Part shown: piece by piece, positions 3,331 through 61,277 of the stretch
Layout: each line of letters begins with the position of its first letter
Position numbering within the stretch: the first letter of the stretch is position 1
Source: a virus
IMG/VR virus record: IMGVR_UViG_3300045988_126562
DNA length: 64,000 nucleotides
Reading direction: 5' to 3' (one strand)
The notes under the pieces: model-generated
What the model was told of the DNA's origin: nothing
What the model saw: the letters and a program-made list of their open reading frames with translations, nothing else
Databases searched by the model: none
Translations under genes and position numbers: made by a program

Positions 3331-3916
3331 TGTAATATGCTAACACAGGACTATTTTTATGTATCTCTGGAGGTTGCATATCTTTAAAGGATTGGGAATA
3401 TTTTAAGCAATCAAATGGTTTAGTTATTAAATGATAGCCATTTATTGTAGGAATAATATCGCATACTCCAATATTTGGAGGGCAATCTTCTACAATTTTA
3501 ATAGTAGTAGCTACTTCATCGTAGTTAGAAGTATCAATGTCTATCATCCAATATTTAGTTCCAGGTACTAAAGCTTCTTTGCCCCCAGAAATAGTTCTAG
3601 ATAGTCTGTGTACTTTATACTCATCACTAAGCAATCTCTTACTTATTTCGTGCATAGAAGCTATAGCCATCTTTCGGAAACTTCTAGCAGTTGGATGAAA
3701 ATATACTCTAGCATTAAAAAATTTACTTAACTCCACTATTTCATTTTTTAGTTGATCTAGCTGTTCCGGAGTTTGAATGTAATAATCCTTTATATACTTT
3801 TCACATCTTGGAAGGTCGGAATTATCTTTCCTTCTAGCTATTATCTGCAAAAACCAATAATAGTCTGGATTTGGAACTATATATTTTTTTATTACGTTTA
3901 GGTTATCAATTATCAT
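3314..3916 (-). CDS. Hypothetical protein
   Basis: 200-aa intact ORF, overlap-coupled to neighbours. No motif recognised. Confidence 0.45.
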   Translation of the reverse strand: MIIDNLNVIKKYIVPNPDYYWFLQIIARRKDNSDLPRCEKYIKDYYIQTPEQLDQLKNEIVELSKFFNARVYFHPTARSFRKMAIASMHEISKRLLSDEYKVHRLSRTISGGKEALVPGTKYWMIDIDTSNYDEVATTIKIVEDCPPNIGVCDIIPTINGYHLITKPFDCLKYSQSFKDMQPPEIHKNSPVLAYYNGIRK

Positions 3917-5412: not shown

Positions 5413-6547
5413 TTTTCAATAATTTATATTGATTATACAATAACATAAAATCCAGAGGGCTATTAACCCATCCAGATTTATTTGGAGTTGGATATTTTTC
5501 TATATATTCTCCAAGTAAATTAAGATTTATATCTATTCTCTTACTTGTTAGAAATGCTAATTGGGGCATAAATAATTCAGAACCATCTCTTAAAGATGTT
5601 TCTAATGATTTGTTAAATTTTTTTACAATTCTGCTTTCATAATTGCCTCCATACCAGGCATTCCCAGCTATGGCTAAACTATAGTAAGAAGTGTTTTTAA
5701 CTGGAAGTTTAAACCATTTGCAAATATATGGGTGATATAACCTGTCTGCCAAAAATATAAATGGCTTGTACCATATACTTGACCAGAAAGTCTTGCTATT
5801 ACCTCCGAAATTATTATATGTCTTTTTAAATCCGTAGGAAAAATACCAATTATTAGCCCCTCTTTTTACTTTAATAGTGTATTTCAACTTTCTATTTCTT
5901 TCACTTATTCTTTCCCAATAAGGTTCAAATATACGAAGATATGTCCAGTTATGATATAAAGCACTATAATATGGATTATATATAACATGTTTGTTTTTAA
6001 TAACATATTCAGTTATATCTTTCCCTAATTCCTTAGCCTTTTCATAGGTATCAGACAAGTAAGACAATATAGGAACTAAATTCCATATTTGATCCTGGCT
6101 TACAAAGGGAGAAAAGCAGGGGTCTTCATCTATTCTTTCTATACCACTAGAATATCCGGTTCTTATACTCTTTAATCCAAATTTAGAAGCTAAACTGCTA
6201 TTGACATCATCTCTTAAAAAGAATCCTGGTTCTTTCTTAAAATACACATTTGGGCATTTGTCTACAAACATCTGATAACATCCATCTATCAATCTTCTTA
6301 GAGTGGACAGTACTTTATTTAATTCTTCTTCTGTAGATTCCCCTAATTTAACACAAGTAAAGATATACTGGATATAGGAAGCTAAATTTATAGTTCCATC
6401 TCCCATTTCTCCACTCATAGAATCAAAGTTGATTCTGGATAGTGGTATATTAGATCCAGGAATATCCGAATTATCATCATATATAAAATTATTATAGAAT
6501 AATTCTTTATATGCTTTGTATTTCTCTTCTTTTGTCATATTTTTCAA
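5393..6547 (-). CDS. Hypothetical protein (384 aa)
   Basis: Long intact ORF. No motif recognised. Confidence 0.5.
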
Positions 6548-6764
6548 TTAAAGCCATATCAATGTCCATACAGCAATTTTTATATTTTTTACCACTTCCA
6601 CATGGACATTTATCATTTCTAGAAGGTATCTTTATTCTTCTTACGGGTTTGGGTTTAGATTGAAAGATATTAGATAAATTTTTCATTGCCTCATTATACC
6701 TCTCCTCTTTTTCCTCTTCCCATTCTTCTATAGTAGTTTTAATATCTAAGTCTGATATTTTCAT
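6507..6764 (-). CDS. Small protein with SEC-C-type metal-binding motif
   Basis: [13 protein letters not shown] matches the SEC-C motif pattern. Confidence 0.5.
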
Positions 6765-12654: not shown

Positions 12655-13031
12655 AATCTACATTTATCATAATAAGATTTTAGACAAAATATATATAATC
12701 TATTAGATGCTTCTACAGGAGTGTGACCATCCCATTCATTAGCCTTTTCTTTCTCTGGAATATCAAATAAATTCCAGTCTTCTACCCTATAATGGTTACT
12801 GATCTGACCTGTAGGTAATTCAGCCATCACAATAAACCAATCTCCTCCGAAACACATTTCTCCATCAGAATGCTTTCTTGACTTGTGAACATCATAGTTA
12901 CCGTGTAAAGAATTAAAAAATGCTGCATTATATAACATACGGTAACGATAAAGCTCATTAAAAGTATGAAATCCGTCTGAAACTTTATCCTCAGGAACAA
13001 ATAAATTTTTAAGTCTTTGTAATAATTTCAT
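12648..13031 (-). CDS. Hypothetical protein (HTFNELY / WDGH motifs)
   Basis: 127-aa ORF abutting the Pnkp gene. Function unknown. Confidence 0.45.
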   Translation of the reverse strand: MKLLQRLKNLFVPEDKVSDGFHTFNELYRYRMLYNAAFFNSLHGNYDVHKSRKHSDGEMCFGGDWFIVMAELPTGQISNHYRVEDWNLFDIPEKEKANEWDGHTPVEASNRLYIFCLKSYYDKCRLC

Positions 13032-13966
13032 TAGAATTTTCCTTCATTAGGTTGTAACACAGTTAAACCTAAATCTCTATACATTTGCACACATTTATAG
13101 TTATCGTCTAGTACAAACCATACATTATACTTAGGTTCGATCTTTTCCTTATAAATTTTCTCTTTAGTTGGAGCACCCTTGCTGTAATCTTTATATGGTT
13201 TAAAGAATATATCATCGTAAGGAATATAGTGATCTTTTAGCCAAGTTTTAGTAGCTTCCATAATATCTGGAGCACCTTCTCTTCCTGTTACAATAAGTAT
13301 CTTAAAGTTTTGCATATGCATAATTTGAACTAAGTCACATATAGGCTTATTTGGAATGTCAGTCAGCATACCTTCTGCTGCACCGTCTCCCCAGAAAGGT
13401 CTTTTAGTAGTATTGAAACAAAGAGTAGAGTCCATATCTACTATAATAGCATTTTCCTTATCATGGCTATATGAATCCTCCATCTTGTTCATATTATCCA
13501 CTACCCTCATTACTTCTTCGTGTATAATAAAATCTCTATATCTTTTCCAAGTATCACGAATAACTTTTTCTCCAACAGGGTTAGGTCTCATAGCATCACG
13601 ACGAATACATTCTTCAACTGGAATAAAGAAATCTTTATATTCAACTTTATATTCCCAGCCATAAATGTAATTTTCGTTAAAATCTTTAACCATATTTTCT
13701 AACTCAGCACAAGTCTTAGGGTTAAGGTTCATATTATCAACCACAATATTATAACCTTTTTCCATACTATTAGCTAGTACAGTATGGTAAGTTGCAGTAA
13801 CTATCTTCTCTCTGCTAGGAACCCAATAGTCTCCTAACATATTGCGAATATCATCATTATTAAACCTAACTCTGTGCTCTGGATCTTCATGGCACCATTG
13901 TTTAGCCCAAGTTGATTTACCAGATCCTTGAATGCCTCTACAAATAATTAATTTTCTTACCTCCAT
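13031..13966 (-). CDS. Bifunctional polynucleotide 5'-kinase / 3'-phosphatase (T4 Pnkp-like)
   Basis: N-terminal P-loop GIQGSGKST. C-terminal HAD phosphatase motifs IVDMDSTL (DxDxT), VTGR and LDDN. Confidence 0.8.
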   Translation of the reverse strand: MEVRKLIICRGIQGSGKSTWAKQWCHEDPEHRVRFNNDDIRNMLGDYWVPSREKIVTATYHTVLANSMEKGYNIVVDNMNLNPKTCAELENMVKDFNENYIYGWEYKVEYKDFFIPVEECIRRDAMRPNPVGEKVIRDTWKRYRDFIIHEEVMRVVDNMNKMEDSYSHDKENAIIVDMDSTLCFNTTKRPFWGDGAAEGMLTDIPNKPICDLVQIMHMQNFKILIVTGREGAPDIMEATKTWLKDHYIPYDDIFFKPYKDYSKGAPTKEKIYKEKIEPKYNVWFVLDDNYKCVQMYRDLGLTVLQPNEGKF

Positions 13967-18508: not shown

Positions 18509-19687
18509 TTATTCCAAATCATCCCTAAAAGCTTTAAAACTTGGCTGCAAGGGAATTCCGTCTTCCGAATAATAGAAAAATTTACATTCTCCTATTTTTC
18601 CCTTATACTTAGATTCAAAGTTTTCCCAATATTCCTTTTTTAGTTCTCTGTCTCCAAAAGGTTTGGCTTTAAAGCGTTTTCCATCTTGAGTTTCTAAAAT
18701 AAAAACCATATCTTCGGATCCCCTAAGACCAGGCTCTTTATCAACAACTTTAAAGCAATCGTCCAAATATGACTTTACCTTAATCATATCATTAGTTCTC
18801 TTATTGATTCCATATGTCTTACTTGGATTACGTATAACAACTCCTTCAAAGCCTTCAGAAACATACTTATCATGCAGGGTTTTTATTTCACTCCATCCTT
18901 CACATGGGGTATGTTCTACCATAACTACCTTTATATCAGAATCTTGAAAGTATGGAGTTACTACGTCCTCTAACATTTCTAGTCTATCTTCGAATGTCAA
19001 ATTAGGATCTACTACATCATAAATCCAATATTCTAAGGCTTCACATTTACTATAAACATCAGTTTCCAACCTAGCCAGACCACTTATGTATTGTAGAGGT
19101 CTTCCATGTATATACAATTCTCCATCCAGTATTATATCAGGGTTTTCTTCAAATAACTTAATCATATCCGAATGCCCTGTTATATGTTTGGTAGAATAGT
19201 CATAATGTTGCCCTCCTCTGCTAGCTGTATGAACTTCCCCATCTTTGTAGTACATCAAGCATCGCACTCCATCTATCTTACGGCTAGCTAACCATTTTTT
19301 CTCTAAAGCAGAACTAGCTACCTTATTAAAGTCTTTAGCTAACATAGGTTTTACCATTCCGTTAGCATCTGTAGTATCAGTAGGAAGGATTTTATCTAAA
19401 TCCTCCTTAGAATATTTGCTTATCTCTTTGTCTAAAAGTTTATATCCCTTGTCTTGATATTTTTTCAAGTGGGAATTATACTCTAATCTAGCTTGTTCAG
19501 TAACAGTACGTTTAGCTTTTCCTTTACTTATTACTATTTCAGGTTGAGTAGTTATTTTTCCTCCATATTGAGAAGTATATCGTCTAATAACGAATCCATT
19601 ATGATCATCTTCCCATTGATAACTTATTTCTACTACTCTTATCTTACCTTTAGAATCCCTAGAAATTAAAGTATTTTGACCTATCAC
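18509..19687 (-). CDS. ATP-dependent DNA ligase
   Basis: Motif I SRKIDGVR (KxDG), motif [10 protein letters not shown] and motif V IKVK. Confidence 0.85.
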
Positions 19688-53709: not shown

Positions 53710-54204
53710 TTATTTTCTAATAAATTCCAATAATTTCTTTAAGCTGTCAGATATTTTATTCTCTATAGAATTAATTTGAAATATTACTTCTACATCTACT
53801 AAATATTCTGACGAGTAAGAATCTCCTAAACCAGTAGTACCTTCTAAATATCTAGTTCCTTTGGGAATTATACTTTTTACTACTCTAATATTCTGTCTAA
53901 CATTAGGATGAGGATGTGCAATAACTTGGCTATTACTCAAAATCATCATAATTATACTATCGATATTAGAATAAGTGTGTATTCCATCCCTAGTCTCCAT
54001 TTTATCATTTACATGAATGCCTAAAATATTAAAAGGTTCATTAGATTGCCTCTTTTCCCCTATTCGAGGAGCTTTAACATTTCTAATGGGAGTTACCCAT
54101 CTTCCATCATATCTTTCAATATAGAGTTTATAACACTCTACGTCTTCCTCTGATACTTTGAAAGTATCTTCTGTAAAAGACTCTGCTTTAATCTTTAAAC
54201 ACAT
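53710..54204 (-). CDS. Hypothetical protein
   Basis: 164-aa ORF. No motif recognised. Confidence 0.4.
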   Translation of the reverse strand: MCLKIKAESFTEDTFKVSEEDVECYKLYIERYDGRWVTPIRNVKAPRIGEKRQSNEPFNILGIHVNDKMETRDGIHTYSNIDSIIMMILSNSQVIAHPHPNVRQNIRVVKSIIPKGTRYLEGTTGLGDSYSSEYLVDVEVIFQINSIENKISDSLKKLLEFIRK

Positions 54205-54263
54205 AGTTTTATCTAGTTAATAATTAGTGGAGGAGGTGGGAGTCGAACCCACATCTCTGGATT

Positions 54264-54734
54264 TCAATAATGTGATGCGTTCTTACCAGAAAAAGTATCG
54301 GTTTGGGAATGACAATTAGGACATAGTAATCTAAGGTTTTCTATTCTATTATCCTTATTATTTCCATTAATATGGTCTAATTGTAATGATAGAGGCTTTT
54401 CTTGCCACTCATTAATACCACATATACTACACTTGTATTCTAGTAAATTAGATTCCAATAGCCTCTTCTTTAGAGAAGTGTTATTGGTGTAAGTAGAATC
54501 TTCTACTAGAATATCTTCTAAGGACTTATACCTTTCAGGTGAGTGATTTTTAGCATATCTATTAAAGTGGGATGTATCTATATCTAGCTCTCCTATCTTA
54601 TCTTTAATTAGTTTAGTAACTCCGCCTCCCTTTGACCTATAACCAAGCTTAAAAGCTATTTCGGAAACTGTCTCAGATTCTTTAACTATATTACTAAACT
54701 CTTCATCACTAAATTTACTTATTAAAGTTCCCAT
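54264..54734 (-). CDS. HNH homing endonuclease (paralogue of 60624..61130)
   Basis: Contains CSICG...HINGNNKDNRIENLRLLCPNCH. Start moved to MGTLISKF, because the track N-terminus is a read-through of tRNA-Phe. The stop TGA abuts the 3' tRNA half. Confidence 0.75.
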   Translation of the reverse strand: MGTLISKFSDEEFSNIVKESETVSEIAFKLGYRSKGGGVTKLIKDKIGELDIDTSHFNRYAKNHSPERYKSLEDILVEDSTYTNNTSLKKRLLESNLLEYKCSICGINEWQEKPLSLQLDHINGNNKDNRIENLRLLCPNCHSQTDTFSGKNASHY

Positions 54735-54739
54735 ATAGG

Positions 54740-54811
54740 TGGGACAGGAGGGAATTGAACCCCCAACGCCAGGTTCTTCAAACCTGCGCTCTACCATTGA
54801 GCTACTGTCCC
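54740..54811 (-). tRNA. tRNA-Phe (GAA), nested inside the split tRNA
   Basis: Cloverleaf GGGACAG/CUGUCCC, D arm GCUC-AAUGGUA-GAGC, anticodon loop UUGAAGA, T loop UUCAAUU. Confidence 0.85.
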
Positions 54812-54964
54812 TTTTATCTTAAAATCCAGCGCGAACTGACCACCTGCGCTACCCCTCCATTACGAGATCCATACTAATAGCCGACTATATTAGCGGTATC
54901 TCAACCTATCTTCTACTTTGGTCGTTGATAGGATAAAACTCCTCCTCTAGTGTGCATCAATATC

Positions 54965-54972
54965 CAAATTTA
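54965..54972 (-). promoter_or_regulatory. Bacteroidota-type -7 promoter box (TAAATTTG) upstream of the split-tRNA/tRNA-Phe unit
   Basis: The minus strand reads TAAATTTG (TAnnTTTG), about 100 nt upstream of the tRNA 5' end. Confidence 0.3.
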
Positions 54973-54996
54973 GAGAGGCAGTAGAAGGAAATATTT

Positions 54997-55323
54997 TTAC
55001 CAGCCATGACCATGCTCTCTTCTGTAAGCTTCAATTTGAGATTGCTCTCTTTCTATGCGGCAGTCTTTTATAAAGGTATCTTCTTTATCTTTACTAACAT
55101 TTTGTTCAAAAGTATTATTTTCTGGTAAATCAAGAAGATTTAAATCTATGGGAAAATCTGTACTATCAGCTAACCAATATATGTATTGCAAATCATAAGA
55201 TTTTATCCATCTCAAAGTCCTTCCTTTGTACTTTCCAAATTGAAGAGGCGAATCCAAATACGAAGATTTTAAATTTTTCAACTTATTAATTAGTTGAATA
55301 TATTCTTCTGAAGTAACTCTCAT
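54997..55323 (-). CDS. Hypothetical protein with FGKYKGRTL...YIYWL motif
   Basis: Start moved to MRVTSEEY (Met22), 1 nt after the upstream stop. The motif resembles small DUF3820-like phage proteins (from memory; unverified). Confidence 0.4.
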   Translation of the reverse strand: MRVTSEEYIQLINKLKNLKSSYLDSPLQFGKYKGRTLRWIKSYDLQYIYWLADSTDFPIDLNLLDLPENNTFEQNVSKDKEDTFIKDCRIEREQSQIEAYRREHGHGW

Positions 55324-55324
55324 A

Positions 55325-55552
55325 TTAATGTTTATTACATAGACAATCTGGATCGTGAACTGTACCATAATTCGTTCCAGTAGCATTATTCAGCATGAAA
55401 GTTATATAATGATGTCCATTATAATAAAACTCTCTAGTTGTTGGAGCAGAATACACATTACCTGCTTTTACTGTAGTAAAAGAGTCAGAAATAACTATAT
55501 ACAGCATTAACGCTATTGATAAAGCTATTAATATCTTTAAAATCTTCTTCAT
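55325..55552 (-). CDS. Small secreted protein
   Basis: 75 aa with signal peptide MKKILKILIALSIALMLYIVIS. Confidence 0.4.
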   Translation of the reverse strand: MKKILKILIALSIALMLYIVISDSFTTVKAGNVYSAPTTREFYYNGHHYITFMLNNATGTNYGTVHDPDCLCNKH

Positions 55553-55577
55553 ATCTTATATATTTTACTAAATTTTG

Positions 55578-55648
55578 TGATTCCAGTCGGACTCGAACCG
55601 ACGTATTTGGTTTTAGGGACCAACGGATAGCCACTCTCCCATGAAATC
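55578..55648 (-). tRNA. Predicted amber-suppressor tRNA (anticodon CUA)
   Basis: Cloverleaf GAUUUCA/UGGAAUC, D arm GGA-GAGUGGCUA-UCC, anticodon stem UUGGU/ACCAA, loop CCCUAAA (anticodon at 55614-55616), T arm GUCGG-UUCGAGU-CCGAC. Position 33 is an unusual C. Confidence 0.6.
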
Positions 55649-55724
55649 CTGAGGCACTATTTTTGCAGTACAGTGCCAATTCATCTGACTCTTTGGTCAA
55701 CCACTCGCATCCCACCAGTTTGTT

Positions 55725-56036
55725 TCACCTGCCAAAGCCTTGTCCGTTGTAAGAGATTAATTTAAGGTTTTTAAAAAGTTTTCCAGAATCTGTAATTGCT
55801 ATTGCTGTAGTTTTATTATTTAAATCAGGCTCTTTGAATAAAGAAAAATCTCTGTTTAACAAATTTAATTTTTCTTTCCATTCTATTATATTAGCAGACA
55901 GATAGATTAAATACTGATTATTCCATTTTTGGTTAGGATGATCAATAATCCATTGAGCAACGGCATGTCCGCCTTGTACACATCCATATATAGGATTAAG
56001 ATTCTGATCTATCAGAACGTATAATCTCTCCTGCAT
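55725..56036 (-). CDS. Putative PTH2-family peptidyl-tRNA hydrolase
   Basis: The by-eye pattern matches PTH2: LYVLIDQNL..YGCVQGGHAVAQ, LFKEPDLNNKTTAIAI, and a C-terminal NLKL. No alignment was run. Confidence 0.4.
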   Translation of the reverse strand: MQERLYVLIDQNLNPIYGCVQGGHAVAQWIIDHPNQKWNNQYLIYLSANIIEWKEKLNLLNRDFSLFKEPDLNNKTTAIAITDSGKLFKNLKLISYNGQGFGR

Positions 56037-56496
56037 ATTTGTCTACTAAACTATTAACCGAATTAATAAACACCTTACCTAAATAAGTTTTTGAAATGTC
56101 AGATTTAGAATCATATGGATCTAAGCCAAAACCATTCCATCCACTTAGCCATTTAGCATGATTAAGAATAGATTTAATATAGTCCTCACTATTCGAAATT
56201 AAGTTATGTTTTAAAATAAAATAAGTGACATACATAACAAATAACTCATCCCTATTCTTCTTTACTTGGTAATCCGCATTAGTTCTAGTTTTATAGTCAT
56301 TCGATTTTCTGTCTGATTTAGCTTTAATTTGCTTAGCTACTAATTCTTTTATTGCTTGTTTCATTGCTTCCATAATAAGTAATTTAAATTGAGTTTTTAC
56401 AACTAATCTATTGATTTTTGATTTCAAAGGTTCAGGTAAAACTCTTATGGAGGCCATAATTTTCGCAGCAACGTCTACATGTGTTTCATCATTCAT
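55996..56496 (-). CDS. Hypothetical protein
   Basis: 166-aa ORF. No motif recognised. Confidence 0.4.
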   Translation of the reverse strand: MNDETHVDVAAKIMASIRVLPEPLKSKINRLVVKTQFKLLIMEAMKQAIKELVAKQIKAKSDRKSNDYKTRTNADYQVKKNRDELFVMYVTYFILKHNLISNSEDYIKSILNHAKWLSGWNGFGLDPYDSKSDISKTYLGKVFINSVNSLVDKYAGEIIRSDRSES

Positions 56497-56541
56497 AAAT
56501 TTTTAATTGTTTAACATCTGGAAACTAAAAGTTTTAATTTG

Positions 56542-56626
56542 TGTACCCTCTGGGACTCGAACCCAGCGTGGGATTACTCCCTCCGGATTAAAAGTCCGGT
56601 GCAGTAGCCAGCTCTGCTCAGGGTAC
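56542..56626 (-). tRNA. tRNA-Lys (UUU) with a 16-nt long variable arm
   Basis: Cloverleaf GUACCCU/AGGGUAC, D arm GCAG-AGCUGGCUA-CUGC, anticodon stem CCGGA/UCCGG, loop CUUUUAA, variable arm AGGGAGUAAUCCCACG (GGGA/UCCC stem), T arm CUGGG-UUCGAGU-CCCAG, discriminator A. Confidence 0.7.
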
Positions 56627-56720
56627 AGATTACAGGATTCATATAAACAGTCCAATATATCCCTAATATACTCTAGTTTAAATTTGCTGTAAGAATCCTT
56701 ATTTCTTTAATACAGTGATG

Positions 56721-56728
56721 CAAAGGTA
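56721..56728 (-). promoter_or_regulatory. Bacteroidota-type -7 promoter box (TACCTTTG) upstream of tRNA-Lys(UUU)
   Basis: The minus strand reads TACCTTTG (TAnnTTTG), about 95 nt upstream of the tRNA 5' end. Confidence 0.3.
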
Positions 56729-56811
56729 GTAATTCTTTTTTACTATTCCAAAATTTTCTATAAGATTTTTATACTAATAGTATACGTATATACTAAATAA
56801 GCGACCTATTG

Positions 56812-57237
56812 TTATAAGTCGCCTTTCTTTATTTTTTTATACAAAGAATAAGGAATTTCATTAAAATTTTCCTTCCCTTCTTCTCTTAATGCTATCATTT
56901 TTACTCCATTTCTGTAGAATACAGTAGGATCAGATTCCAATACATAGTTATCTTTTATATGATTCTCATTGCAATATTCATGGGAATTAAGAAACGGCAA
57001 AACAAGCTTAACCATCTCTCTTATAGGAATAGTAACTTCCTGCATCATAGGAATCCAGTTTGCACAGGTATTTACTGTATGAAGTGGAACGTTACTACCA
57101 GATATAGTTTGCATTCCAGAATTACCCATAAATCGTACATAATCATGGGCTACTATAATTCTTTTTTCTCTAGAAAAATCTAGATCTTCTAATTCTACTT
57201 CAAATTTTCTTTCACTAATCTGTTTTGTTATCTTCAT
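56812..57237 (-). CDS. Hypothetical protein
   Basis: 141-aa ORF. A GCGAC/GUCGC hairpin spans its stop codon. Confidence 0.4.
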   Translation of the reverse strand: MKITKQISERKFEVELEDLDFSREKRIIVAHDYVRFMGNSGMQTISGSNVPLHTVNTCANWIPMMQEVTIPIREMVKLVLPFLNSHEYCNENHIKDNYVLESDPTVFYRNGVKMIALREEGKENFNEIPYSLYKKIKKGDL

Positions 57238-57253
57238 ATCTTAAAATTTAATG

Positions 57254-60156: not shown

Positions 60157-60391
60157 AATCTTCTCTTACTTGTTAATTATTAGATATTATTTTAAATTTT
60201 TTATCAAAGGATAGACTATGTTTCTTTCTCCACATACTGTATCTATCCGGACAGAATCACTTCCCAGTAGGATATGGAAAGTCTTATATGAGTTCAATTC
60301 TCAAACGAGTCAGCGCTTTAAATTAACTCGTCATAGTCTATAAGTGCCTTCAGTGGGACTCGAACCCACACGGCCGAAGCCACTAGATCCT

Positions 60392-61228
60392 CAAGCTATG
60401 AGTCTTAGCTTCGACTATGTCTTAACCATATCTTTCGACTTAGGTTGCTGGTATATAGTCTGTACACATTTATAAATTGGGTTGGGCGTCAGGTGTCCCT
60501 CCGTTGTTTTCAGCCTATGTTTTCAAGGCATCCTTCTTTTAAAACATACGAACAAAAACGAATGTTCCCAATTTAACTTAGCTCGGCGTTATTTACATTT
60601 ATAAGGCTGTAACCTTCACCGAATTAGCCAGCTTCTACTTCAAGAGTTTCCTCTTGAGCACTCAATACCTTTCCTGAATAATTGTCTGTTTGTGCATGAC
60701 AATTTGGACAAAGAACTTGTAGATTTTCTAAACGATTATCTGTATGAATTCCGTTTAAATGGTGTAATTCAAGTGAAATAGGATGTCCTAACCACTCAGT
60801 TAAACCGCAGCATTCACATTTATGTTCTTTTATTCCTTCAGACAGAAGACGATTACGGATATTATGAGAAGTCCATCCTGAATTTTCAATTAAAATTTCA
60901 GAAATGTCTTTCTTTTTGATTGACGGATGTTCTCCACTTTTTAATCCTTTATTCCATCGTGCTCCTGTAAAATGACTCATATCTAAATTTAATTGTTGTA
61001 TCTTCTTTTTTACTGTATTAAGATTACCTCCTTTTGGAGATATTCCGATAATTCTACACACTTCGGCGTAAGAATGTCCTTCTTTTACAGCATTAATAAA
61101 TTGTTCTTCTGTATATTTTTTACTTGCCATGGTATATTATTTTAATACACTATTATACTAATAAAAATTGTATACACAAAAAATAATTTTAACTTAATAC
61201 TTCCAATTAATTTAGATGTAATTTTTTT
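60392..61228 (-). mobile_element. Group I intron carrying an HNH homing endonuclease ORF
   Basis: An R-like element CAGACUAUAUACC (60450-60466) and an S-like element AAGACAUAGUCG (60412-60423). A terminal hairpin AAGCUA..UAGCUU is followed by G at the 3' junction. Insertion position is 34/35, as in the classic tRNA-Leu intron. Confidence 0.65.
60624..61130 (-). CDS. HNH homing endonuclease (intron-encoded)
   Basis: Contains CECCG...HHLNGIHTDNRLENLQVLCPNCH. Alignable along its length with 54264..54734. Confidence 0.8.
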   Translation of the reverse strand: MASKKYTEEQFINAVKEGHSYAEVCRIIGISPKGGNLNTVKKKIQQLNLDMSHFTGARWNKGLKSGEHPSIKKKDISEILIENSGWTSHNIRNRLLSEGIKEHKCECCGLTEWLGHPISLELHHLNGIHTDNRLENLQVLCPNCHAQTDNYSGKVLSAQEETLEVEAG

Positions 61229-61277
61229 AAGTCTAGCGTGTCTACCAATTCCACCATGAAGGCTTTAACTCTTGGGT

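Follow-up and report, generated by a model that had tools for sequence, protein, structure and literature searches.

The tRNA gene at 54858-54228 on the minus strand of the window, i.e., the whole 64,000-nt stretch of viral DNA that was analysed, is interrupted in its anticodon loop by a second, complete tRNA gene and an HNH endonuclease gene. The insert is probably an intron-less homing-endonuclease cassette which brings along a substitute for the disrupted tRNA ('cleave and replace'). The outer tRNA would persist as a relic whose halves serve as homology arms. From 5′ to 3′, the locus is made up of the following components:

54825..54858, minus strand: 5′ half of the outer tRNA-Phe ('type 2'), assigned by sequence reading and homology to contig L172

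54812..54824, minus strand: left junction or spacer UUUUAAGAUAAAA, 13 nt, assigned by sequence reading

54738..54811, minus strand: nested intact tRNA-Phe(GAA) ('type 1'), 74 nt, assigned by ARAGORN and Rfam

54264..54734, minus strand: HNH homing-endonuclease ORF, 156 aa, 471 nt, assigned by Pfam (HNH/HNH_3) and PHROG 10822

54228..54263, minus strand: 3′ half of the outer tRNA-Phe, assigned by sequence reading and homology, with a decayed homologue in L009

Read directly, minus-strand positions 54858-54825 and 54263-54228 are two halves of one tRNA. The 5′ half consists of the acceptor strand GGAGGGG, U8 and A9, the D arm GCGC-AGGUGGUCAGUUC-GCG with a loop of 13 nt, and the anticodon-stem strand CUGGA. 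The 3′ half starts with the residual loop (U)GAAA and continues with UCCAG, the variable loop AGAU, the T arm GUGGG-UUCGACU-CCCAC, CUCCUCC, and the discriminator A. All four stems are intact, with 8 contiguous pairs at the anticodon stem. That these are complementary halves of a single tRNA, as the original prediction from the letters alone had it, is borne out by ARAGORN, which calls a 78-nt tRNA from the joined halves, and by a strict split-tRNA scan of both strands of the window (21 stem pairs, at most one G-U, T-loop motif required), which returned 54858-54229 as the sole match and no match in 200 shuffles; a laxer scan, with about one match per shuffle, was not discriminating. The scan also speaks against an assembly chimera or a chance resemblance, as could arise in a metagenome-derived sequence with repeat-rich tRNA arrays. 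The same HNH gene and 3′ half are present, with the same junctions, in two independent assemblies (L007 and L008), and the layout is found in unrelated contigs as well, including the L037/L038 pair; the probability of such an artefact is practically nil.

The insert has the predicted composition, namely a whole tRNA-Phe(GAA) plus an HNH ORF with a UGA stop abutting the 3′ half, as confirmed by ARAGORN, Rfam, and Pfam. The nested tRNA is called as tRNA-Phe(GAA) by ARAGORN, scores 70.7 bits with the Rfam tRNA family (threshold, 29), and possesses the acceptor stem GGGACAG/CUGUCCC and the discriminator A, followed by CC. The ATG of the HNH ORF lies 3 nt past the ARAGORN-called tRNA end and 5 nt past the discriminator, and there is an overlap between its stop codon and what is left of the outer anticodon loop. 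The spacer is composed of U32/U33 of the outer-tRNA loop and a cassette leader, to which the leader UAAGUAAAUAAAAA of L017 is similar.

By homology, the outer tRNA is a tRNA-Phe(GAA), too. Its best match among 763 intact tRNAs is the uninterrupted tRNA-Phe(GAA) of the Bacteroides-associated contig L172, which is identical to it in a 24-nt run of the 5′ half around the D arm (TAGCGCAGGTGGTCAGTTCGCGCT) and in the D arm and the variable loop. The anticodon stems differ by a compensatory change (CTAGA/TCTAG in L172 versus CTGGA/TCCAG in the window). L172 is the only intact homologue found, and its acceptor and T stems differ from those of the outer tRNA. The residual UGAAA stands immediately before the 3′ strand of the outer anticodon stem. 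Since the outer tRNA is a homologue of tRNA-Phe(GAA), the anticodons UUG and UAA initially proposed for it are not supported. In place of the proposed anticodon stem GGAUU/AAUCC, homology with L172 gives CUGGA/UCCAG and a 4-nt variable loop. A tRNA-Gly(UCC) of L017 resembling the 3′ half in its variable loop and T arm was superseded as a candidate relative by the L172 homologue. In exact-pattern scans of viral contigs, the outer 5′ half retrieved nothing and the outer 3′ half only three unrelated tmRNA-like 3′ ends (L001-L003). An intact outer anticodon stem-loop (CTGGATTTNNNAAATCCAGAGAT) was found neither in viral nor in genome contigs, the loop model in this pattern being wrong in hindsight.

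The locus is devoid of a hidden intron. The approximately 560 nt between the halves are fully used by the 13-nt spacer, the 74-nt tRNA, 3 nt, and the 471-nt ORF, and a group I catalytic core (P3-P9, G-binding P7) was not found in this interval. No ribozyme or intron family was retrieved for positions 54200-55020 from Rfam 15 (E≤10), a database that also missed the genuine tRNA-Leu intron at 60.4-61.2 kb. The earlier statement that there is neither a visible ribozyme nor room for a group I core is upheld by these two results, and because there is no ribozyme, nothing is spliced. Inspection by eye for P1 revealed no guide in the 13-nt spacer; a G precedes the 3′ half (in the TGA stop), the boundary being ambiguous. 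No join of the halves yields a 7-nt loop with GAA at positions 34-36, as opposed to the intact L172 loop CTGAAAA; the candidates either read UGA or UUA or have a loop of 6 nt. Unlike these halves, the exons of the window's tRNA-Leu(UAG), whose intron (60.3-61.3 kb) displays R/S-like core elements that are not seen in the split tRNA, again as predicted, rejoin exactly to the allele of L004; the intron-less allele is carried by both L004 and L005.

Comparison with such introns bears on the explanation that the HNH gene once resided in a self-splicing group I intron, which would have lost its core and captured a neighbouring tRNA-Phe, leaving a dead outer tRNA. Group I introns are carried at the anticodon loop by cyanobacterial tRNA-Leu(UAA), and HNH genes of the same PHROG 10822 family are found inside about a dozen true anticodon-loop introns of 700-1000 nt, one of them being that of the window's tRNA-Leu, with whose HNH protein (HNH2) the cassette enzyme is 42% identical. 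Insertion sites from 33/34 to 34/35 coincide with the classical tRNA intron site, presence/absence polymorphism is common to both, and the acceptor stem and the D arm of the L080 outer tRNA recur in intron-bearing tRNAs, e.g., the one in L035. Group I introns, however, restore the tRNA at the RNA level by means of their ribozyme core, whereas the cassette lacks one and, whichever way the halves are joined, the tRNA is not restored. No trace of P3-P9 is left, and the ORF, homologous to free-standing HNH genes right up to the stop, ends at the same residue as these relatives and abuts the 3′ half. Furthermore, a former intron would explain neither the nesting of tRNAs of the same isotype (four of four cases, see below) nor the reciprocal Phe types of L017, and this origin is accordingly regarded as unlikely.

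A functional split tRNA is far less probable still. The precursor would fold by way of the acceptor stem and the extended anticodon stem, RNase P/Z or some other nuclease would remove the nested tRNA and the mRNA, and a phage Pnkp together with a ligase would rejoin the halves, as offered in the original prediction. The window does encode a Pnkp-like ORF (13031-13966) and an ATP-dependent ligase (18509-19687), and the outer tRNA has kept its four stems and the eight contiguous anticodon-stem pairs. Several points nevertheless tell against this proposal: a 7-nt loop in which GAA is in register is not obtained from any junction; after RNase P cleavage, the 5′ half would retain a 3′ tail of 13 nt, and the enzyme generates 3′-OH/5′-P ends, while Pnkp heals 2′,3′-cyclic phosphate and 5′-OH ends; and the junctions are not defined by any known nuclease. 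A bulge-helix-bulge motif is absent from the junctions, the flanks forming a continuous 8-bp helix (CUGGAUUU/AAAUCCAG) without 3-nt bulges, and EndA, or any tRNA-splicing endonuclease, is not known in bacteria; the host context is Bacteroidota, as indicated by the Bacteroides association of L172 and a DUF6383 ORF. In addition, parts of the outer tRNA are missing from the homologous nested loci of L017, L038, and L009, and part of the 5′ half is deleted in L007. It is equally hard to credit that the nested tRNA is a built-in processing handle and that Pnkp and ligase rejoin a live outer tRNA, which would amount to ribozyme-free, protein-dependent tRNA splicing in a bacterial virus. A rejoined product could have an altered loop, e.g., UUUUAAA, corresponding to the anticodon UUA on a Phe body and reading the UAA stop codon. 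The window phage already carries a tRNA(CUA).

The endonuclease matches Pfam HNH with 27.4 bits (cut-off 21.4) and HNH_3 with 28.0 bits (cut-off 24.8), contains the motifs CSICG ... DHINGNN ... N ... CPNCH, and belongs to PHROG 10822 (E=8e-54). More than 590 relatives each were detected in viral and in metagenome contigs, nearly all of them inside tRNA arrays; 160 of the more than 1,000 PHROG 10822 loci in IMG/VR and metagenomes were inspected. Spacers to the neighbouring tRNAs frequently measure 0-10 nt, or the genes overlap. The ATG is often located 0-5 nt past a tRNA 3′ end, which suggests that the mRNA is released by tRNA processing; in the window, the near-leaderless HNH mRNA would probably be freed by 3′-end processing of the nested tRNA. 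The earlier idea that the nested arrangement times HNH expression is plausible in this part only, the position of the ATG being compatible with processing release. The metagenome scan with the HNH protein yielded no relative above 58% identity, and hence no close endonuclease-free allele was recovered. A PDB sequence search gave no meaningful relative, and the nested layout was not found at the homologue in the Pseudomonas phage L174.

The type-2 tRNA-Phe(GAA) is interrupted in its anticodon loop, at about 33/34, by a type-1 tRNA-Phe(GAA) plus a free-standing HNH gene. In the cleave-and-replace scenario, the HNH enzyme would act on type-2 tRNA-Phe genes that are uninterrupted, cutting their DNA within the anticodon loop or close to it, and repair of the double-strand break would copy the cassette in, the tRNA halves acting as homology arms. 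The first invasion probably proceeded via microhomology (UU.. on the left, UGAA on the right). The nested tRNA would supply the lost tRNA-Phe function and would itself be resistant to cleavage because its anticodon-stem sequence is different; this strategy would take the place of an intron or intein. Judged from the loop register and from decay in relatives, the outer tRNA would be dead. One of the original explanations, disruption of a tRNA by a mobile HNH plus tRNA cassette, is the best supported, considering that a ribozyme is missing, that the cassette recurs, and that the halves decay.

The layout of 5′ half, whole tRNA, HNH gene, and 3′ half is not confined to the window; at least three further phage genomes have it. 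L017 combines an outer type-1 Phe with a nested Phe whose D loop is type-2-like, which makes this locus the reciprocal of the window, the resemblance of its nested tRNA to type 2 being only loose. In L080, a Gln-like outer tRNA is split within the anticodon (UUU|...|GGU) around a nested tRNA-Gln(UUG), and in L037/L038, two independent contigs, a Gln-like outer tRNA encloses the HNH gene and, behind it, a tRNA-Gln. In all four nested cases, two of which derive from one genome, the break lies in or next to the anticodon loop, and nested and outer tRNA are of the same isoacceptor family (Phe/Phe twice, Gln/Gln twice), for which the chance expectation at the isotype frequencies of these arrays is about 1.4e-5. 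No split or nested tRNA with a homing endonuclease in phages was described in the literature searched. The statement that the arrangement is undescribed holds for this literature, but the arrangement is not a one-off.

The cassette is part of a larger block:

54226..57252, minus strand: approximately 3-kb module containing the cassette, missing from the closest relatives L004/L005

This module is composed of small ORFs, an 86-nt tRNA-Lys(UUU)-like gene, the tRNA(CUA), an ExoX-C-like ORF, a 138-nt element, and the split tRNA. At either junction, the sequence ...TCCAC marks the 3′ end of a tRNA-like gene; in L004 and L005, CTAATTATTAACTAG and a 164-aa ORF come directly after the tmRNA. No integrase or transposase Pfam match was recorded among the module genes, and the pieces are complementary halves and not a duplication, contrary to what an integrase-type attL/attR tRNA fragment would show. 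A megablast search of 24 kb against GenBank phages returned no relative.

The module junctions are relevant to a further explanation, in which the endonuclease would stimulate illegitimate recombination between paralogous tRNA genes without site-specific homing, and the halves would be junction debris from the shuffling of array modules. Besides the exact meeting of the module with its neighbours at tRNA-like 3′ ends, tRNA fragments are scattered in related arrays (L171, L014, L033, L085), the tRNA-Phe of L006 looks chimeric, and segmental amplification of tRNA regions through recombination is known to be driven by SegB (PMC13096335). The halves, however, complement each other exactly and without overlap as parts of one tRNA, and the break between them falls inside the anticodon loop, which would not be expected of such debris. 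Breaks at or near the anticodon loop in four of four cases, together with the matching isotypes, point to a targeted cut and not to random junctions, so that recombination alone appears doubtful as the origin of the locus.

Presence of the HNH gene is sporadic, homologous loci without it being found in L169, L006, and L172, with the whole module missing from L004/L005. Type-1 tRNA-Phe genes without an HNH gene are present in L169, where the stand-alone gene is 98.6% identical to the nested tRNA over 73 nt, and in L006, whose tRNA-Phe is identical to the nested tRNA body over 61 nt. The L006 gene combines this type-1 body with an acceptor stem matching the outer tRNA of the window; the history of these genes thus includes mosaicism below the level of the tRNA, and a single clean insertion is not sufficient to account for it. 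An uninterrupted type-2 allele, anticipated in related phages, is available from L172, but none was found in a close relative of the window phage, the nearest ones (L004, L005) being without the module. In L007, a phage 99.5% identical to that of the window, a 60-nt deletion spans the outer 5′ half and the nested tRNA. As the nested tRNA-Phe was lost there too, the 'replacement' is not strictly needed, and the phage tRNA is probably dispensable.

Compared across relatives, the sequences of the outer halves read as a decay series. In the window, all stems are intact and the loop is 1 nt short; the L080 outer tRNA has one stem mismatch; the L038 outer 3′ half contains a 10-mer in triple tandem repeat; positions 28-38 are missing in L017; and L009 retains, directly behind an HNH gene of 60% identity, nothing but a degenerate 3′ remnant that is homologous to the window's 3′ half. 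The deletion in L007 belongs to the series as well.

Several known systems share individual traits with the proposed cassette. The homing endonuclease SegB of phages T4/T6 has its gene in the tRNA cluster, cleaves within tRNA genes, and causes them to be rearranged (PMC2330249, PMC13096335). Like the window HNH gene, the SegB gene is embedded in a phage tRNA array and is missing from close relatives, and it needs no intron to drive the inheritance and the rearrangement of this region (PMC2330249, PMC13096335). SegB, however, belongs to the GIY-YIG enzymes, recognises the T-psi-C arm, and is encoded between tRNA genes (PMC2330249, PMC13096335), whereas the window HNH gene interrupts a tRNA gene at the anticodon loop and is accompanied by a whole replacement tRNA. 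In fungal mitochondria, mORFs (Allomyces atp6; Glomus atp6/atp9/cox2/nad3) carry a foreign replacement C-terminus of the interrupted gene (PMC3630166). They likewise couple a homing-type endonuclease gene with a divergent replacement, and the native piece remains as a relic that is unexpressed or decaying (PMC3630166). What they bring is a part of the coding sequence, joined in frame, and the displacement affects the 3′ piece alone (PMC3630166); the cassette, in contrast, nests a complete, independent RNA gene, and both native halves stay as flanks. ClvR follows the same logic as the cassette, pairing a nuclease that destroys a gene in one version with a tightly linked functional version that the nuclease does not cut. 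ClvR, however, is an engineered element that stays at a fixed locus and spreads because non-carriers are killed; the cassette is located within its presumed target, and homing would be its means of spread. In 'fractured genes' with split inteins (PMC2677866) and in archaeal split or intron-containing tRNAs (PMC4390854), the gene is divided into two co-linear pieces by an insert as in the window, and complementary stems are kept by the halves. The former rejoin by trans protein splicing (PMC2677866), the latter by means of a bulge-helix-bulge, EndA, and a ligase (PMC4390854); no rejoining machinery or motif is evident at the window locus.

Homing endonuclease genes are thought to persist by residing in self-splicing introns or inteins, or by being sited beside their target. 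The window locus and its counterparts suggest another solution, in which the gene resides inside the target along with a cut-resistant working copy, this being cheap enough for a 75-nt RNA gene. Should cleavage assays confirm the proposed specificity, a natural 'cleave and replace' element would be at hand. The two allele types of tRNA-Phe would then invade each other reciprocally (window versus L017), offering a tractable arms-race system for selfish nucleases, and the mosaicism and tRNA fragments of phage tRNA arrays would be accounted for in part. Split genes of such kind will be missed or mis-called by tRNA finders and annotators.

Immediately upstream of the outer tRNA, another conserved feature is located:

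54859..54996, minus strand: conserved structured element of approximately 138 nt, conserved in L006 and L171

The element reaches precisely to the point where the outer tRNA begins. It also precedes an intact tRNA-Phe in L006 and a tRNA-Ile in L171, and it is context and not part of the cassette. The upstream sequence AAUAUAGUCGG was considered as the 3′ part of a group I intron or as a trans-acting ribozyme, and this was rejected on grounds of its lack of homology to the window intron, its short length, and the absence of an Rfam match; it stands as an unexplained conserved element. No Rfam family was retrieved for the 138-nt element, whose consensus fold comprises three helices with 2 compensatory pairs.

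The HNH endonuclease gene of the window lies, together with a complete tRNA gene, between the two halves of another tRNA gene.

Features of the split tRNA locus in the window
55386-54997, minus strand: ExoX-C-like ORF
54859-54996, minus strand: non-coding element of 138 nt between the ExoX-C-like ORF and the outer 5' half
54858-54825, minus strand: 5' half of the outer tRNA, GGAGGGG-TA-GCGC-AGGTGGTCAGTTC-GCG-CTGGA
54824-54812, minus strand: spacer TTTTAAGATAAAA
54811-54738, minus strand: nested complete tRNA-Phe(GAA) (ARAGORN; Rfam)
54734-54264, minus strand: HNH ORF of 156 aa with TGA stop, 3 nt after the nested tRNA (Pfam, PHROGs)
From the HNH TGA to 54228, minus strand: 3' half of the outer tRNA, AA-TCCAG-AGAT-GTGGG-TTCGACT-CCCAC-CTCCTCC-A
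Next after the outer 3' half, minus strand: 164-aa ORF

When joined, the outer halves give a 78-nt tRNA that is accepted by ARAGORN. A strict scan for split tRNAs (21 stem pairs, at most one G-U, T-loop motif) had its sole match in the whole window at 54858-54229 and none in 200 shuffles; a lax scan, with about one match per shuffle, was non-informative. The nested tRNA-Phe scored 70.7 bits in Rfam against a threshold of 29, in agreement with ARAGORN, and Pfam and PHROGs identify the 156-aa ORF as an HNH endonuclease. The HNH gene and the 3' half are also present in two independent public assemblies (L007, L008). The original prediction of one tRNA split around a whole tRNA-Phe and an HNH endonuclease is thereby confirmed; the split is real, and the probability of an assembly or other artefact is negligible.

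Over 73 nt, the nested tRNA shares 98.6% identity with a tRNA-Phe that stands alone in the phage contig L169, with no HNH gene behind it. Its body also matches that of the intact L006 tRNA-Phe without a difference across 61 nt; in contig L006, as in the window, the tRNA gene comes after the ExoX-like ORF and the 138-nt element. On these matches, it is an ordinary, presumably functional phage tRNA-Phe, of a sequence type (type 1) different from that of the outer gene. For the latter, scanning of genome contigs for its unusual D arm gave one match, L172, a 163-kb contig filed under uncultured Bacteroides, which has an intact tRNA-Phe(GAA) (GGGACTG-TA-GCGC-AGGTGGTCAGTTC-GCG-CTAGA-CTGAAAA-TCTAG-AGAT-CCTGG-TTCAACT-CCAGG-TAGTCCC). 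The D arm (24 nt) and the variable loop are identical in both, and the anticodon stem differs by one compensatory pair. In addition, the outer 3' half retains (U)UGAAA directly 5' of the stem, where it overlaps the stop codon of the HNH gene. The outer gene is therefore also a tRNA-Phe(GAA), of a second type, with the interruption near position 33/34. The anticodons UUG or UAA proposed before arose from reading the stem in the wrong register; however the outer halves are joined, a 7-nt loop with GAA in register does not result, and the A-run is a base too short. Comparison with related phages for an uninterrupted allele had been proposed as a check, and L172 supplies an intact type-2-like gene; endonuclease-free alleles exist for both tRNA-Phe types. 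Three unrelated viral sequences (L001-L003) likewise terminate in the exact 25-nt T arm and acceptor strand seen in the outer tRNA; ARAGORN calls nothing there, and these ends resemble the tRNA-like domain of a tmRNA more than a tRNA. At the start of contig L008 (positions 1-75; ENA ERZ508791 NODE_1547), an Illumina adapter is joined to ...|AACCTGGCG, at a point that falls within the anticodon stem-loop of the nested tRNA-Phe; this could be a trivial contig-end artefact or a hint of a fixed DNA end at the nested anticodon loop.

All bases between the outer halves are assigned to a feature and the homology of the HNH ORF to free-standing HNH genes extends to its last residues, so that no space is left for a catalytic core. 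In Rfam 15 (E<=10), no intron or ribozyme family was found in 54200-55020. The space argument outweighs this result, because Rfam also missed a genuine group-I-like intron at 60.3-61.3 kb (no Intron_gpI match at E<=1), which provides a useful internal control.

The tRNA-Leu intron of the window
60344-61263, minus strand: tRNA-Leu(UAG) with a group-I-like intron of about 837 nt after U34; R/S-like core elements visible
61130-60624, minus strand: intron-borne HNH of 168 aa, a paralogue of the cassette HNH (42% identical)

Joining of the tRNA-Leu exons gives exactly the tRNA-Leu(UAG) gene that the closest relatives, L004 and L005, have without an intron. Both the R/S core elements noted in this intron and the lack of a visible ribozyme, or of room for a group I core, in the split tRNA-Phe have held up. 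With no core and no exact restoration, the split locus is not a group I intron; neither does it belong to the archaeal bulge-helix-bulge introns and split tRNAs or to integrase att-site fragments.

More than 590 relatives of the HNH protein were found in viral contigs and more than 590 in metagenome contigs. Among 160 inspected loci the gene is almost always located in a tRNA array, often flush with a tRNA (spacer of 0-10 nt or overlap); in the cultured Rhodococcus phage Dorin (L173 839-1428, PQ114736.1) its CDS spans the whole gap between tRNA-Glu(UUC) and tRNA-Gly(GCC) with 0-nt spacers on both sides. About a dozen loci carry it within a 700-1000-nt anticodon-loop intron with space for a ribozyme. 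The ribozyme-free nested layout recurs in three further genomes. In L017, an outer 5' part (GGGGCGG-TA-GCTC-AATGGTA-GAGC-A-C) is followed by the leader TAAGTAAATAAAAA, similar to that of the window, a nested tRNA-Phe, the HNH gene, and the outer 3' part (ATCTG-GCGTT-GGAGG-TTCGATT-CCTCC-CCGCCCC-A). This locus is reciprocal to the window, its outer tRNA being type 1 and the nested one having a D loop (AGGTGGT) that loosely resembles type 2. L080, on the same contig as L017, is a Gln-like tRNA split within the anticodon (UUU|...|GGU) by tRNA-Gln(UUG) and HNH, and in L037 and L038, two contigs, a Gln-like tRNA encloses HNH and tRNA-Gln(UUG). When each outer tRNA was scored against 763 intact tRNAs, its nearest relatives shared the isotype of the nested tRNA in all four cases, the chance of which is about 1.4e-5 given the isotype frequencies in these arrays. 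The nested layout is a recurrent class with a same-isoacceptor rule, which, with the tRNA-Phe identity of the outer gene, adds substantively to the original prediction. The arrangement had been thought undescribed; full-text searches of open-access papers indeed turned up no account of a tRNA gene that encloses a complete tRNA of its own isotype together with a homing endonuclease, but the layout is not unique. A group I intron that lost its core would lead to the same outcome, yet would leave the isotype rule unexplained, and is quite improbable.

The outer halves are preserved to different degrees. In the window all stems are intact and the loop is one base short; L080 has one stem mismatch. 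The L038 3' half (3545-3596) contains the 10-mer TCCTGGTTCG three times in tandem in the T-arm region of the split Gln-like tRNA, which suggests slippage in sequence that is no longer constrained. In L017 positions 28-38 are missing, so that the anticodon stem cannot form. In L009, which encodes the closest relative of the cassette HNH (60% identical), tRNA-Phe and HNH are followed only by a degenerate remnant aligning with the window 3' half; its T loop has 6 nt, its stem is mismatched, and a 5' counterpart is absent. In L007 (Logan ERR13965920), whose sequence is 99.5% identical to that of the window, 60 nt between two AGCGCAGGT repeats are deleted (L007 3937-3960, corresponding to window 54850-54782). 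The deletion removes the distal part of the outer 5' half as well as the 5' portion of the nested tRNA-Phe, whose anticodon arm is now fused to the outer 5' end; neither tRNA therefore survives. Mutation of the halves in relatives, which had been named as one of two marks of a plain pseudogene, is found, and from this graded decay the halves look like relics of different ages rather than a maintained split gene.

Two repair enzymes are encoded elsewhere in the window.

13031-13966, minus strand: Pnkp-like kinase/phosphatase ORF (HAD_PNKP 100 bits)
18509-19687, minus strand: ATP-dependent ligase (DNA_ligase_A_M 88 bits, RNA_ligase 42 bits)

Such a pair is the usual phage kit for repair of tRNAs cut by host anticodon nucleases. 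Its presence would suit protein-dependent splicing by RNase P/Z, the Pnkp-like enzyme, and the ligase, as originally considered, but the wrong loop register, the 13-nt tail, incompatible end chemistry, the segments missing from homologues, and the L007 deletion make this very improbable. The locus is probably an intron-less homing cassette, made up of type-1 tRNA-Phe and HNH, that has entered a type-2 tRNA-Phe at its anticodon loop, essentially the disruption by a mobile HNH plus tRNA cassette that had been proposed first, given the missing ribozyme, the recurrence, and the outer decay. In the key step, the HNH enzyme would cut the DNA of type-2 tRNA-Phe genes close to the anticodon loop. The nested copy would be resistant and take over the lost tRNA function, and the outer halves would serve as homology arms for further homing. 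In the window, L009, L017, L080, and Dorin, the ATG of the HNH gene follows a tRNA end by 0-5 nt, so that processing of the tRNA would liberate an HNH mRNA almost without a leader. Untargeted recombination debris is hard to reconcile with break points that are restricted to the anticodon arm across the nested cases, and with the isotype rule, and is improbable. The locus would work most like the free-standing endonucleases of phage tRNA clusters. Conceptually it resembles fungal mitochondrial mORFs, which bear a foreign replacement for the displaced gene end (PMC3630166), and, by the same logic as in synthetic Cleave-and-Rescue elements (PMC6442612), a nuclease would be linked to a working copy that it cannot cleave. 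It should surprise mobile-element specialists and is directly testable, the cleavage specificity being as yet a prediction.

The split tRNA belongs to a module of about 3 kb (57252-54226) between the tmRNA and the 164-aa ORF, which contains small ORFs and two odd tRNAs and is absent from L004 and L005 (5978-5979).

Further RNA genes and the conserved element
55577-55648, minus strand: tRNA(CUA), amber-suppressor-type
56541-56626, minus strand: 86-nt tRNA called Lys(UUU), with a long extra arm, 93% identical to one in contig L171
57253-57594, minus strand: phage-encoded tmRNA, tag GKNNAISFSREIDEVRIAA
Window 54859-54996 (minus), L006 6340-6476, L171 8103-8240 (minus): conserved element of about 138 nt

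Both module junctions lie at the ...TCCAC end of a tRNA-like 3' terminus, which suggests that array modules are shuffled by recombination at tRNA 3' ends. The L006 tRNA-Phe (6477-6549) starts at the same flank position as the outer tRNA of the window and combines a type-1 body with an acceptor stem (GGAGGAG/CTCCTCC) matching that tRNA; it looks like a sub-tRNA chimera. Together with other tRNA fragments in related arrays and the module junctions, this mosaic shows recombination at sub-tRNA resolution, in agreement with SegB, which cleaves within tRNA genes and causes recombination-dependent rearrangement of the T4/T6 tRNA region (PMC2330249, PMC13096335). The 138-nt element, which matched no Rfam family, has a consensus fold of three helices with two compensatory pairs and ends exactly at the 5' end of the following tRNA, which is the outer Phe in the window, the intact Phe in L006, and tRNA-Ile in L171. 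Upstream of the element in L171 are a tRNA-Leu 5' half and an intron-like start.
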